Assembly (NCBI GenBank): GCA_048882045.1
Contig: JBHLRZ010000009.1
Location: forward strand, 1 to 64,000
Direction: 5' to 3'
DNA: 64,000 bases
Source: Candidatus Thorarchaeota archaeon
Lineage (GTDB): Archaea > Asgardarchaeota > Thorarchaeia > Thorarchaeales > Thorarchaeaceae
A program made the position numbers and the translations under genes. Every line of letters begins with the position of its first letter. Within the stretch, counting starts at the first letter, position 1. Of this stretch, positions 10,952 to 14,478 are shown piece after piece. The notes beneath the pieces were generated by a model. That model worked only from the letters and a program-made list of their open reading frames with translations. It had not been told where the DNA came from and made no database searches.

Positions 10952-12673
10952 TTAGTCAGTTTCTTCTTCGGATTCTCTGGTATCAAGAAGACGGTCTAGT
11001 TCAGCCAATGATTCACCATTTAATGGGAGATGATCGTCATCATGTGTTTCCTCTGTGCCTAGTCCTCCAACAGAACGTTCTAATGGACCAAGAATCGACT
11101 CAAGTTCCAATAATGATTCTTCATCAACCTCTTCAGTTCCATTGTTTTCCCCTTCAATCGGGATAGCTTCATCACTTCCAATCGCTTCTAGGGCTGTGTC
11201 TATCTCTTCTGCTGGCACTTGATCAAGTTCAGCAGCAATGATGTCATCAGCTTCGAGGGCCTCAAAAATGAGATCTTTTGCCATCTTTATGGCTTGAAAA
11301 TTCTCTTCGATGACTATTTCAGGACCTCCTTCTCTCATGACCCTCACCCTCATCTTGAGTTCAGGTAAAGGAGGTTGAGCTTCGGACTCAATCTCTACTT
11401 CAACAGGCGCTTCTATATCTTCATCAACAGTCGGAACCTCATAGGCTTCTACCTCTTCAGGTTCCACAAAAGGTCCCTCATCTTCCTCAATTTCAATCTC
11501 AACAGGGACTTCTGGTTCTACCTCAGCCTCGACGAGTACCTCTTCTTCTTCCTCTTCTATTTCCACCTCTTCCTCAATGGTTTCCTCTTCTTCAATCACT
11601 TCCACTTCTTCTTCGATAACCTCGTATTCATCAATGTCCTCTATGATTCGACCATCTTCATCAACATAGATTTCCTCATACTCTTCTTCTTCCTCTTCTT
11701 CCTCTTCTTCTTCCGCTTTCAGAGCTTCCTCTTCTCGCAGCTCCTCAATAGCGTCTACTTCTGCAATAGCTTCTTCTGTAGCAGCATCGGTAAATTTCAG
11801 AAGCTCTGAAGCTGGGAGGTCTGGAAGAGCCACACCTACAAATTGAGAAGCAGCAGTCATCAATATCCTAAGCATCTCATCTCGACGGTCCTTGTCAATT
11901 GCTACCATTGGATAAGTTGGAATACCGAGGATTTTTTGGACTACTTCAGGCTTCATCGCGTTTGGTTTGTCTTGTTTGTTGGCCATAGCGAATACCGGAA
12001 CTTTCGGTGCGTCCCGTTTGATGAGTTTCAAGATGTCCTTGCTGATAATCACATTACGAAGAGTCGAGTCACAGACAAGGAAAATTACATCCGCGCCATG
12101 GAAATAGAACCTCCATAATGTGCGAAAACGTTCTTGGCCTGCAAAGTCCCACAAAACGAGTGAGTAGTTACCAAATCGGATGTTCTCTACAGTTTCGAGG
12201 TTGAGTGCAATAGTCGGGACATACTGAAGGGGAGGAGTATCACCAAGTAGAAGGTGAAGAGTCGTTGTTTTTCCGACACCACCTTCTCCGACTAATGCGA
12301 TTTTTAGTCGTGTAGTTACCGATGGTTCGATTAGAACCTTGTAGATCTCACTAACGCCGTCGATTCCCTTCTTCTTGAAAGTCCTGTTTAGTACCTTAAT
12401 AGCTTGATCCATTTTCTCGTAAACGTTCCCCTCTTCTTCACTCTTATCTGTAACGAAAACCAAAACTGTGTCATCCAGGCAGTCTCTTCCAAGAAACTTG
12501 TGATCACCAATAATAAGGGGTAGTTCTGAGACCTGATCGTGCTCAGATCTCAAGTCCTCTCTAGTTGTGATGAACTCATTAAGAGCTCCTTCTGTGACAT
12601 CCACTGGCCAATATTGTGTCGATGCAATGACCTCTCGAGTGGAAATTAGGACGAGGAAAGTATTGTGAATCAC
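10952..12673 (-). CDS. Longin-like domain + Arf-like small GTPase + long acidic low-complexity tail
   Basis: GEGGVGKT, YVPT, WDFAGQERFRTLWRFYF, NKQD; N-terminal ~120 aa resembles a longin fold; about 280-aa Glu-rich tail. Confidence 0.85.
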   Translation of the reverse strand: MIHNTFLVLISTREVIASTQYWPVDVTEGALNEFITTREDLRSEHDQVSELPLIIGDHKFLGRDCLDDTVLVFVTDKSEEEGNVYEKMDQAIKVLNRTFKKKGIDGVSEIYKVLIEPSVTTRLKIALVGEGGVGKTTTLHLLLGDTPPLQYVPTIALNLETVENIRFGNYSLVLWDFAGQERFRTLWRFYFHGADVIFLVCDSTLRNVIISKDILKLIKRDAPKVPVFAMANKQDKPNAMKPEVVQKILGIPTYPMVAIDKDRRDEMLRILMTAASQFVGVALPDLPASELLKFTDAATEEAIAEVDAIEELREEEALKAEEEEEEEEEEEYEEIYVDEDGRIIEDIDEYEVIEEEVEVIEEEETIEEEVEIEEEEEEVLVEAEVEPEVPVEIEIEEDEGPFVEPEEVEAYEVPTVDEDIEAPVEVEIESEAQPPLPELKMRVRVMREGGPEIVIEENFQAIKMAKDLIFEALEADDIIAAELDQVPAEEIDTALEAIGSDEAIPIEGENNGTEEVDEESLLELESILGPLERSVGGLGTEETHDDDHLPLNGESLAELDRLLDTRESEEETD

Positions 12674-12799
12674 TTCGATATCACCAGACTCATTTAGAGC
12701 GAGGAATTCATTTTCGCAAGCCTAGGTACTTCTAAATTAAGCCTTTAGGAATAGATTAAGTTGTTCCGTGTGTGTATTTTGATGTTCTGTGTACCTATT

Positions 12800-13012
12800 A
12801 TGCTCCCTCAGAGAAGTTAGATGTTGGAGCGGCGGTTCGCCAAAGCGAACCTTCCGCATCCGTGGAGCTCTTTCCAACAGGATGCATGGTAAAATCAAAT
12901 TACATGCGCAAGACTTGCCCCATAGGGCAAATAGGGACCTAGAAACTCACTTTGGGACCGTGTTTGAGTTCCTTTGACGGGGGAAGCCATGCAACCCTGT
13001 TCTGAAAGATTT
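12800..13012 (-). ncRNA. Candidate structured non-coding RNA, family unknown
   Basis: 14-bp closing helix (12987-13001 with 12876-12889), three more strong hairpins, G-U wobbles favouring the minus strand, upstream BRE/TATA. Confidence 0.6.
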
Positions 13013-13033
13013 CTAGGAAACGAAGCATCTCTT

Positions 13034-13050
13034 CATATATAGGGTTTTCT
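13034..13050 (-). promoter_or_regulatory. Archaeal BRE + TATA box
   Basis: Minus strand AGAAAACCCTATATATG, about 30 nt before the structured region; no CDS start nearby. Confidence 0.55.
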
Positions 13051-13186
13051 GGTTGTGAAAGAGTCGCAGAATCGTCCTGAGTAAATTGTGGAAATCGCAG
13101 TCTATTGTAGAATAATCAAGCCAACCGTAGGTCTTCTATTGACTGTAGAAGATGAGTCCTCATCTGGGGTGCTAGATGAGAAAAGG

Positions 13187-14326
13187 CTACCTTGGGAAAT
13201 TGTCTCTCAGAAGGCGTAGGTGATGATGCACCATTTCCATCTGTTTTGGATCGTCAGGAGTCTTCTCAAGGTCTGTTACCAGAGTCTGAAGGAAGTATTC
13301 GGGGAAGAAGAGTCTTACACGGATATCATTGAGCAAGAACAACCACTTGTCATACTCACCTGAAGCACCCTTTCTCCTCTTCTCAGAGATGATTCGGAAC
13401 TTCTTCAGCGTTTGGATTGCTTGTTTAAGTTCCTTTGGTGGAATTGCTAGGGTTGCCTCCAACTCTGAGATGTTGACTGGTCTTCTTCTCAGCTCACTCA
13501 GTGTATCATAGCAGTCTGGGTCCGCAAGGACCTGAGCTACGGAAACTGTGTCCTCAGGAGTTTTCTGCCATTCAGTTAGAAACTCCAAGACCTCTCCTTT
13601 GTACTCAGCGGCGAGCTCTGGATCAAGTACACTTCCAGCAGCCTCCATTGCGATGAGCGGTGGAGCACGAAAGACTTCAAGGTCTTTTATCATAAATACA
13701 CAAGTACGACCGATTTCATCAACCCACTCTGTCTTCACCAGACCGAGCTCTTCAAATGGAGCCATGATTGAATCAACACTGACACTTGGTAGGCCTGTAA
13801 CCATCTTGAGCCATTCTTCTAGCTCCTCCTTCGAGATACCACCCTTCCAGAGTTTCGGAAACACAGCACGAGACACCTCGTCTGAAAATAGACGCGCAAG
13901 CCGTGACTCGTCTGTCATACCTGCAAGGCGGATAATTCGACGATAGGTGTTGTCGAGCTCTGTCTGCAGTTCAGCGTCTGTCATCGCTACAACTGCATTG
14001 GTGAGGGGTGTGACCACAGAGGTTATTGCAGCCTCGTAGGTTTTCGGATCTTCAGAGGGTGTAAGCAGGAGTGACACACAGTATTGCTCTTCTTCTCGAA
14101 CAATTCCAGTATAGTAAGACGCAACACCGTATTCCTCTCCTCCTATTCTAACGCTCAGTGATGAGAATCCTGCAGTGGCATCTCCCATGGCGTGTGAGGT
14201 GAAAATACGCATTATTTCTGTATTGAGATCCTCTCGATAGTAATCCGCAAAGTCTCCAGGAACCTTTGCTTTAAGGACGGCTCCTATCTTAGAGTCCCAG
14301 TCTATCAACAGCATAGCTACGGGCAT
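13187..14326 (-). CDS. uDENN/NPRL2-like longin domain protein with tandem wHTH domains
   Basis: N-terminal MLLIDWDSKIGAVLKAKVP...YCVSLLL longin/uDENN pattern; wHTH-like segments (ISKEELEEWL...ELGLVK; VNISELEATL...LKKFRII). Confidence 0.65.
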   Translation of the reverse strand: MPVAMLLIDWDSKIGAVLKAKVPGDFADYYREDLNTEIMRIFTSHAMGDATAGFSSLSVRIGGEEYGVASYYTGIVREEEQYCVSLLLTPSEDPKTYEAAITSVVTPLTNAVVAMTDAELQTELDNTYRRIIRLAGMTDESRLARLFSDEVSRAVFPKLWKGGISKEELEEWLKMVTGLPSVSVDSIMAPFEELGLVKTEWVDEIGRTCVFMIKDLEVFRAPPLIAMEAAGSVLDPELAAEYKGEVLEFLTEWQKTPEDTVSVAQVLADPDCYDTLSELRRRPVNISELEATLAIPPKELKQAIQTLKKFRIISEKRRKGASGEYDKWLFLLNDIRVRLFFPEYFLQTLVTDLEKTPDDPKQMEMVHHHLRLLRDNFPR

Positions 14327-14478
14327 TTTTACTTCTCTCCCTGTCCCTAGGGGATGGTCAGTTTAAAGCCGGGTTACATTACGTTGCAACGAGCCAGCCT
14401 AAAAAACCTTGTCTTATTTGGATTCGAGAATGAGAAATTTCGACAAAATAAGCGCTTTTTGGATGGGAGTTTCGGGTT

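Follow-up and report, generated by a model that had tools for sequence, protein, structure and literature searches.

A family-specific gene for a structured non-coding RNA in Thorarchaeota, with candidate base-pairing sites at the starts of an adjacent gene and a Ras-family GTPase gene

The 64-kb stretch of Thorarchaeota DNA analyzed here (referred to as the window) carries, on its minus strand, two protein-coding genes that flank a spacer of 513 nt (positions 13186 to 12674), the length given for this gap in a preliminary description of the locus. The spacer contains a genuine gene for a folded non-coding RNA that is found family-wide. This single-copy structured RNA gene of ~195 nt occupies positions 13013 to 12819 of the minus strand, with a predicted 5′ end at ~13013 and a predicted 3′ end at ~12821 to 12811. 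The gene directly upstream (13187 to 14326, minus strand) encodes a protein of 379 amino acids, which has no significant family in Pfam; “longin-wHTH” is the label that it received in the preliminary description. Its winged-helix-like similarity is below threshold (DUF4423, E = 0.025, in Pfam, and SmtB, E = 0.26, in a PDB sequence search that returned nothing significant). This gene, the candidate target discussed below, is directly upstream of the RNA and co-oriented with it in every genome, and its product shows 84 to 100% amino acid identity across the family, versus 69 to 88% for the GTPase encoded on the other side. The latter gene (10952 to 12673, minus strand), which lies outside the RNA, encodes an Arf-type GTPase (Pfam Arf, 76 bits).

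In BLAST comparisons with relatives, 13013 to 12821 is the only part of the spacer that aligns, with 78 to 93% identity in 15 members of the genus, sharp ends, and unalignable flanks. The covariance-model match in the same genome covers 12819 to 13015 with 213.7 bits and is the only copy there, so a dispersed repeat or MITE, an alternative that the preliminary description had raised, is rejected. That description had put the structured RNA at about 210 nt; the structure stands, on the strength of covariation, but the length comes down to ~195 nt. The aligned RNAs differ by 1- to 4-nt indels and, in some species, by self-complementary hairpin insertions, across which no reading frame survives; a conserved reading frame is therefore ruled out for this element.

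The 201-nt minus-strand stretch from 13010 to 12810 has a minimum free energy of −71.8 kcal/mol, lower than expected by chance (z = −4.5; 200 dinucleotide shuffles). With z = −3.9, the plus strand is nearly as stable, so folding energy by itself is proof neither of an RNA nor of its strand. Covariation was assessed in two alignments, both fitted to the model and therefore biased toward structure: among 67 family sequences, 94.0% of the cells are paired and 34 of the 42 modeled pairs change on both sides, with a covariation score of 0.41, whereas shuffles give 0.16 (none of the 500 attains 0.41) and slid registers no more than 0.083, and in a 24-sequence set the corresponding figures are 93.6% of cells, 31 of 42 pairs, and a score of 0.49 versus 0.19 (again 0 of 500), the slid registers of both alignments remaining at or below 0.086. 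Single-sequence folds of the two clades of this genus (clades A and B) and of other genera share a common architecture despite differing helix sequences. Because of the magnitude of the covariation and these independent folds, the RNA structure is secure despite the fitting bias. The strand follows from G-U pairs, which the preliminary description had already noted in three helices as a sign of selection on RNA structure: in the 3′ hairpin, two pairs are G-U in 16 and 12 sequences of the 67-sequence alignment, and such frequent G-U pairs, which would be C-A mismatches if read on the opposite strand, identify the minus strand as the RNA strand.

The common architecture consists, in order, of a long closing stem, a small C-rich loop, a hairpin (H3) with a conserved loop of 15 to 20 nt, a variable region (H4), a U-rich strand, and a 3′ hairpin. 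All the stems and loops listed in the preliminary description, its two copies of GGUCCC, its U-rich tract, and its 3′ hairpin are present on the minus strand where it had placed them. The closing stem joins 12987 to 13009 with 12869 to 12889, and every pair in it is compensatorily changed, UGCAUGG/CCAUGCA in clade A becoming GGCGG/CCGCC in clade B. Next to its 5′ strand is the C-rich junction or loop CUUCCCCCGUC (12976 to 12986), whose CCCCGU hardly varies, if at all, across the family and which in many genera is closed by a short GAC/GUC stem. H3 (AGGAACUCA/UGAGUUUCU, 12941 to 12973) has a stem that is 97 to 98% paired, with its sequence compensatorily replaced in genera g28 and g27, and a 15-nt loop with ACACGGUCCCAAAG; the GGUCCC of this loop (12959 to 12954), of which GGUCC is invariant, is candidate seed 1. 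Candidate seed 2, a further GGUCCC (12939 to 12934), lies in the single-stranded junction CUAGGUCCCUAUU (12930 to 12942), which across relatives reads UUGGUCCCC, AGGUCCC, or AGUCCC. H4 (UUUGCCC-UAUG-GGGCAAG, 12914 to 12931) covaries in all four modeled pairs and is enlarged elsewhere to one or two hairpins, often with extra UCCCC loops. It is followed by the invariant unpaired CUUGCGCAU (12904 to 12912), kept in both clades and in most genera, and by the U-rich single strand UAAUUUGAUUUUA (12890 to 12902), a tract of variable length that is present here in all genera. The 3′ terminal hairpin (GGAUGCGG..GGUUCGC-UUUG-GCGAACC..CCGCUCC, 12826 to 12861) has two-sided changes in 11 of its 14 modeled pairs, carries an entirely different sequence in clade B (GAUGUU.GGGGUUC), and leads into a pyrimidine- and U-rich tail (12808 to 12825) that is more U-rich in relatives. 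The invariant segments of the RNA are thus mostly unpaired: CCCCGUC, ACGGUCCCA in the H3 loop, UUGGUCCCC or AGGUCCC in the junction, CUUGCGCAU, and the U-rich tract. GGUCCC-like motifs are found in 2 to 6 copies per RNA, always in loops or junctions, with the genera that have up to six often carrying them in extra hairpin loops.

That this RNA belongs to no recognized family, as previously proposed, is supported by a scan of the 64-kb window against Rfam 15, which returned no match at gathering thresholds. A permissive Rfam scan of positions 12600 to 13250 yielded only a chance opposite-strand match to mir-9318 (14.7 bits, with a threshold of 90; E = 5.2), no tRNAs were found in the window, and a full-text literature search found no description of the RNA. 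RNase P and MRP RNAs, of which there is normally one per genome, are recognized by the P4 pseudoknot and the CR-I/CR-V motifs, and SRP RNA is recognized by a covariance-model match that includes helix 8 and the Alu domain. Neither RNA is matched here, and both are encoded elsewhere in the genome, RNase P as a full-length RNaseP_arch match of 167.4 bits (G000:C1:75143-75483) and SRP (7S) RNA as a full-length Archaea_SRP match of 80.5 bits (curated threshold, 96.5) at G000:C11:46113-46423; both identities, which the preliminary description had also dismissed, are therefore rejected. Box C/D sRNAs have RUGAUGA and CUGA boxes with a K-turn, and H/ACA sRNAs have a pseudouridylation pocket and an invariant ANA box 3′ of the stem. 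The RNA contains no UGAUGA or CUGA, the triplet after its 3′ hairpin varies (ACA, ACG, ACU, or ACC), and this hairpin has a 2×1 internal loop only and no pseudouridylation pocket, so that both of these classes were likewise rejected.

The preliminary description had also suggested a switchable leader of the Arf-type GTPase gene, with a GUUGGA/UCCAAC helix competing with the closing stem. In this genus, the RNA is indeed upstream of the GTPase gene and co-oriented with it, the strong 3′ hairpin and U-rich tail could resemble an expression platform, and one metatranscriptome contig (X9, described below) extends from the RNA into the GTPase 5′ region. However, the competing helix shows no compensatory change, its middle pair being broken in 8 of 15 sequences, and clade B lacks a possible pairing of CUUGCGCAU with AUGCGGAAG, the 5′ strand of the 3′ hairpin. 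The GTPase gene of this genus has an apparent SD sequence (GGUGAU, within 12671 to 12686) and an apparent TATA-like box (within 12770 to 12800) of its own, both downstream of the RNA. Furthermore, it is more than 1 kb away from the RNA in g15, g23, and g26 and was not found within ~2.5 kb downstream of the RNA in g24, and in the two genera where this was checked, g24 and g26, an opposite-strand ORF directly follows the RNA. Since the downstream gene varies by genus and can be on the opposite strand, the RNA is not a leader of the GTPase gene. These observations, along with the lack of an Rfam match, the RNase P and SRP RNA genes elsewhere, and the missing C/D and H/ACA features, leave us with almost no credence for the RNA being a cis leader or riboswitch of this gene, a divergent version of a known RNA (RNase P/MRP, SRP, C/D, or H/ACA), or a ribozyme.

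The RNA gene is widespread within one family and was found in none of the other genomes searched. A covariance model built from 15 sequences (R1) has full-length matches in 26 of the 28 genomes of the genus, with scores of 188 to 243 bits in one clade and 65 to 70 bits in the other. In the family, represented by “Candidatus Thorarchaeota” MAGs, R1 finds the RNA in 72 of 85 genomes, one copy in each except for two MAGs with two copies; the homologs and the covariation that the preliminary description had called for are thus both in evidence. With the speed filters off, or with a short core model of 75 positions (R2), g28 proves to have divergent copies at the syntenic position, and the copy in genome G081, lost to the speed filters, is recovered; a further weak match, in g20, is on a contig separate from that genome's fragmented neighbor gene. 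R2 gave no match in any of the 234 genomes from two other Asgard classes (151 genomes of one and 83 of the other), a search that very divergent homologs could escape, as R2 missed one known divergent copy (in genome G094). The RNA is also absent downstream of the distant longin-wHTH homologs (30 to 37% identity; 11 loci), and in the one genome of the sister family f2, neither the RNA nor the 5′ untranslated region (UTR) site described below was found. The best explanation of these data is an independently transcribed RNA gene of ~195 nt that is specific to a single Thorarchaeota family.

The predicted promoter is a BRE/TATA-like box, CCAGAAAACCCUAUAUAUG (13034 to 13052, minus strand), ~20 to 30 nt upstream of the RNA 5′ end. 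A box with the consensus CYAGAAAGSTTCWTATG is kept upstream of the RNA in nearly all genera, and in the genus alignment, the conserved box AGAAAGCTTCATATG (here CCAGAAAACCCTATATATG, 13052 to 13034) stands ~22 to 25 nt before the conserved block. The RNase P and SRP RNA genes of the same genome have T-rich TATA-like boxes at a similar distance. The preliminary description had credited the RNA with its own BRE/TATA; the box is there and conserved across genera, and its placement suggests that it acts as the promoter from which the RNA would be independently transcribed. Parts of the region are present as assembled contigs in four metatranscriptome runs, which are unstranded and of low depth. An adapter-flanked insert of 133 nt (12863 to 12995) in one run is wholly inside the RNA and 100% identical to it. 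The 433-nt contig X9, from another run, aligns over 12697 to 13006, ending 7 nt inside the predicted 5′ end and running past the RNA 3′ end into the GTPase 5′ region; its remaining 123 nt, beyond 12697, are unmatched to the window. Contig X19 covers 12939 to 13089, and X20 covers the 3′ end of the longin-wHTH gene and 13034 to 13100; both are of low depth and could be DNA, and one of the low-depth RNA-library contigs spans the predicted promoter. Together, these contigs lend weak support to transcription, leaving its ends and strand undefined.

The same contigs bear on another reading, in which the RNA, instead of or besides having its own gene, would form the structured 3′ portion of the longin-wHTH transcript, produced by read-through and possibly processed, and its GGUCCC would pair in cis with the transcript's own 5′ GGGAC (see below), controlling translation or stability. 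Such an arrangement would account for the strict adjacency and co-orientation with longin-wHTH in every genome and for X19 and X20, which cover the spacer and promoter region. However, the contigs that span this region are those that could be DNA, whereas X9 stops at 13006, near the predicted start; nearly all genera have a suitably placed BRE/TATA-like box; from the stop codon to the RNA, relatives have ~90 to 790 nt of spacer, which is otherwise unconserved; and a second complementary site is located on an unlinked mRNA. We therefore regard the RNA as rather improbable as a part of the longin-wHTH transcript.

The preliminary description did not mention the complementarity between GGUCCC and the 5′ UTR of the upstream gene. 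The invariant unpaired GGUCCC of the RNA is the exact complement of GGGAC(C/U), found just 5′ of the longin-wHTH SD sequence. In the window, the candidate target site UAGGGAC (14343 to 14349, minus strand) precedes the SD sequence GGGAGAG (14335 to 14341) and the AUG (14324 to 14326) and is the perfect complement of GUCCCUA in the RNA (12932 to 12938). Among the 58 genomes with both features, the UTR site is GGGACC in 29, GGGACU in 21, a close variant in 6, and absent in 2. The GGAC-containing forms beside the SD sequence in the other 56 genomes are GGGACC, GGGACU, GGACC, GGGACA, and GGACA, and outside this site the UTR is variable.

Pairing was scored by searching the last 45 nt before the gene for its best perfect helix with the RNA, and the UTR of the neighboring GTPase gene served as the control. 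This helix contains GUCC for the longin-wHTH UTR in 31 of 41 genomes versus 1 of 37 for the control; the mean stacking sums are −17.5 versus −13.1, and p ≤ 0.05 against shuffles is reached in 32% versus 0% of the genomes, a modest significance at the level of single genomes. The perfect-helix score was used instead of global RNAduplex energies, which for the RNA and the UTR are the same as for shuffles (mean z of about −0.1), because RNAduplex permits unrealistically large loops. GGGACC is not generally enriched before the SD sequences of this genome (7 occurrences versus a mean of 6.6 per hexamer), and a whole-genome search for 12- to 15-nt complements of the conserved motifs with up to one mismatch returned only the RNA gene itself.

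The two sides of the predicted duplex appear to change together. The junction motif AGUCCC is seen only with a UTR site of GGGACU or GGGACA (10 of 10) and never with GGGACC (0 of 29), a correlation that, the genomes being related, represents perhaps 2 to 3 independent events. In this genus, where the UTR has U instead of C, the junction has either GGUCCC, giving a G-U pair, or AGUCCC, giving an A-U pair; clade A shows the G-U intermediate, and in clade B the RNA-UTR duplex reaches 11 to 12 bp across the SD sequence. In the window, both duplexes are only 7 bp long, and the UTR reads GGGACA, with a mismatch at the helix end, making the clade B relatives the better test material. In g28, the UTR site is lost and the RNA is by far the most degenerate. 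In g15 and g18, the RNA is intact and the canonical UTR site is absent, with GGAGACC-like sequences in its stead; a longin-wHTH target alone therefore cannot explain the conservation of the RNA.

A second candidate target came from a scan of the same genome for the motif beside SD sequences, which returned nine genes, one of them for a Ras-family GTPase (G000:C38:22887-23423) with a UTR site that is kept across the genus. The clade A UTR sequence UUGGGACCG is complementary over 9 bp to the H3 loop CGGUCCCAA. Its clade B counterpart, UAGGGACUAG, perfectly complements 10 nt of the junction CUAGUCCCUA, which is specific to clade B, and the only places where this 10-mer recurs in five clade B genomes are the RNA gene and the Ras-family GTPase UTR. 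The clade A site was found by motif search and is subject to selection bias; the clade B match was not so selected and is unlikely to have arisen by chance (by a rough estimate, about one time in a hundred). Genome-wide, TAGGGACTAG shows no enrichment in clade B (2 to 5 matches versus 2 to 6 for the reversed control), and the other eight genes with the motif near the SD sequence include no paralog of the neighbors of the RNA.

The GGGAC motif is close to the expected mRNA 5′ end, some 22 to 26 nt after the TATA-like box, and could be conserved for initiation or as an operator. GGGACC/GGTCCC would then be a double-stranded DNA operator, perhaps for the wHTH protein itself, that is found inside the RNA gene by coincidence or for feedback, with the function of the RNA being unrelated. 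Both candidate target genes do have the motif close to their predicted transcription starts, and the longin-wHTH protein has the sub-threshold winged-helix-like similarity mentioned above. Yet within the RNA gene the motifs are always in unpaired parts of a covarying RNA structure, and the UTR and RNA versions differ as DNA while keeping G-U pairs (GGGACU opposite GGUCCC and GGGAUU opposite AGUCCC). Several of the UTR differences are transitions of this G-U-keeping kind, which fits RNA pairing better than a shared DNA operator, and we consider the operator highly improbable.

A stronger competitor is that the RNA is a scaffold or sponge for proteins, in which the GGUCCC/UCCCC motifs and the U-rich strand would bind proteins such as SmAP or a C-rich-RNA binder in an RNP or for titration, the UTR match being incidental. 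Several features of the RNA fit this description: the 2 to 6 motif copies displayed in loops and junctions, the further invariant single-stranded motifs (CUUGCGCAU and CCCCGUC) and complex conserved junction, which are typical of RNPs, the U-rich strand beside a stem in all genera, and the retention of the RNA in g15 and g18 without the canonical UTR site. However, no candidate protein has been identified, and protein binding leaves unexplained both the complement of the motif beside the SD sequences of two mRNAs and the in-step change of the flanks in clade B. As the main function of the RNA, protein binding seems to us unlikely but well worth keeping in view. The scaffold and base-pairing readings are compatible, not exclusive: the invariant CUUGCGCAU and CCCCGUC and the elaborate junction, which go beyond simple seed pairing, suggest that the RNA has a protein partner too.

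With the gene, its fold, and its conservation across the family established, the mechanism is what we infer. The RNA is probably a new regulatory RNA, and it combines a conserved unpaired seed with conserved sites at translation-initiation regions, as expected of a trans-acting sRNA. Specifically, we propose, at about even confidence, that it is a trans-acting, multi-seed base-pairing sRNA that acts on the translation-initiation region of the mRNA of the adjacent gene and, in this genus, also on that of the small GTPase mRNA. The long closing stem would hold a multi-way junction that displays unpaired C-rich motifs, namely, the GGUCCC of the H3 loop, the GGUCCC after H3, and the UUCCCCC loop, with the U-rich strand and then the 3′ hairpin completing the RNA. 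On the longin-wHTH mRNA, the GGUCCC motifs would base pair with a GGGAC(C/U) that directly precedes or overlaps the SD sequence, and in this genus they would also pair with the Ras-family small GTPase mRNA. Such pairing would occlude ribosome binding, with repression as the simplest outcome; both the pairing in vivo and the direction of its effect are predictions from sequence.

To our knowledge, very little has been reported on regulation by non-coding RNAs in Asgard archaea. The RNA described here is a clean new family that has one copy per genome, covaries strongly, keeps its synteny, and occurs in almost all genera, and it could be added to RNA databases and used in the annotation of Thorarchaeota MAGs. 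Our broader interpretation, offered with slightly less than even confidence, is a family-wide Asgard riboregulator, an sRNA encoded behind its main target gene whose GGUCCC seeds control longin-wHTH, a putative GTPase regulator, and, in this genus, a Ras-family GTPase. If true, the eukaryote-like GTPase machinery of Asgard archaea would have its first described post-transcriptional circuit. If the pairing holds, longin-domain and small-GTPase proteins, which figure centrally in the debate on the archaeal origin of eukaryotic membrane-trafficking control, would be tied to riboregulation, and the defined RNA-RNA pairs lend themselves to in vitro tests, although these archaea are uncultured.

Several known systems resemble parts of this picture. 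The U-rich single strand, with helices on either side and a 3′ terminal hairpin after it, is reminiscent of eukaryotic Sm-class snRNAs and archaeal SmAP-bound RNAs, an analogy drawn in the preliminary description, and UAAUUUGAUUUUA is a possible SmAP site; unlike in the Sm-class snRNAs, however, the sequence and length of the tract are unconserved, and there is no RAUUUUUGR consensus, snRNA motif, or Rfam snRNA match. CsrB and RsmZ typify sRNAs that serve as protein sponges through repeated loop motifs. As in these RNAs, a short motif is repeated here at unpaired positions of a stable fold, but there are only 2 to 6 repeats and no known cognate protein, and on mRNAs the motif has a conserved complement, an indication of RNA-RNA pairing.

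Base-pairing sRNAs with C-rich motifs are exemplified by RsaE/RoxS of Firmicutes and by RNAIII of Staphylococcus with its UCCC loops. The RNA described here shares with them unpaired C-rich motifs in hairpin loops, complementarity to G-rich sequence at or near ribosome-binding sites, and more than one seed per RNA. It has no sequence or structural homology to them, and none of those Rfam families was matched; it is an Asgard RNA of 190 to 250 nt in which a long closing stem encloses a multi-way junction, its GGUCCC seed is predicted to pair beside the SD sequence and not with GGAGG itself, and its chaperone, if any, would be SmAP rather than Hfq. Among archaea, sRNA162 and sRNA41 of Methanosarcina mazei are trans-acting sRNAs that mask ribosome-binding sites. 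Like them, the Thorarchaeota RNA would be an independently transcribed archaeal sRNA, with a predicted archaeal promoter, and is predicted to pair with 5′ UTR and SD regions. In contrast to these two sRNAs, for it the regulation is predicted from sequence, and it is unrelated to them in sequence, comes from another phylum, is far more structured, and displays family-wide conservation and strict synteny with its candidate target.

The gene directly upstream of the structured RNA (13013-12819, minus strand) encodes a 379-aa protein (13187-14326, minus strand), given a longin-wHTH label in the preliminary description, for which sequence searches of Pfam and PDB gave no significant match. Its amino acid identity is 94 to 98% within the genus and 84 to 93% across the family, compared with 69 to 88% for the adjacent Arf-type GTPase (10952-12673, minus strand), a remarkable degree of conservation. 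In the sister family, identity falls to 65%, and homologs from other Asgard classes, whose genomes each encode several paralogs, are 30 to 37% identical.

A TATA-like sequence, CUUUAAAC, lies at 14361-14368 on the minus strand, approximately 35 to 45 nt upstream of the AUG codon of this gene, so that transcription would be predicted to begin at, or immediately upstream of, the GGGAC site (14343-14349), the candidate pairing target of the RNA beside the Shine-Dalgarno (SD) sequence. The leader of this mRNA would thus be very short, and the candidate target would be its 5' end. The ortholog from another genus of the family, g20 (L101, G055:C130:11650-11780), is fragmented across contigs and has no GGGACC site in its untranslated region (UTR). 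This ortholog also seems to start with AUU, the start being AUG in all others.

A site complementary to the RNA is also found in the 5' UTR of a 178-aa Ras-family GTPase encoded elsewhere in the same genome, G000 (C38:22887-23423; locus L185:188-721, plus strand; Pfam ID PF00071, 139 bits). There, GGGACC immediately precedes the SD sequence (GGUGA) and is retained genus-wide; the annotated start codon in G000 is UUG.

The SRP RNA of G000 (C11:46113-46423, locus L032) is a full-length match to Archaea_SRP. Its score of 80.5 bits is below the Rfam gathering score of 96.5, and standard annotation would miss it.

Within the genus, a conserved box, AUAGAUACACAGAAYAUCAAAAUAUACACAC (12770-12800, minus strand), is located approximately 30 nt downstream of the RNA. 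Rather than being part of the RNA, it is probably the promoter, with TATA box, of the adjacent GTPase gene.

Two metagenome-assembled genomes carry the RNA locus twice, G011 on C103 and C21 and G018 on C14 and C95. With estimated contamination of ~7% in both, mixed strains are a likelier source of the second copy than true duplication. In G011, one copy has, and the other lacks, a 17-nt self-complementary insertion, AUGUUUCGAAAGAAACA, which in some species directly follows the invariant CCCCGUC. Two species have an additional 5' hairpin, and the RNAs of three other genera of the family (g15, g18, and g26) have an extra GGUC-N5-GACC hairpin 5' of the 3' hairpin. The places of these insertions and extra hairpins (loci L040, L041, L039, L046, and L058; RNA positions about 30 to 50) are typical expansion points for structured RNA.
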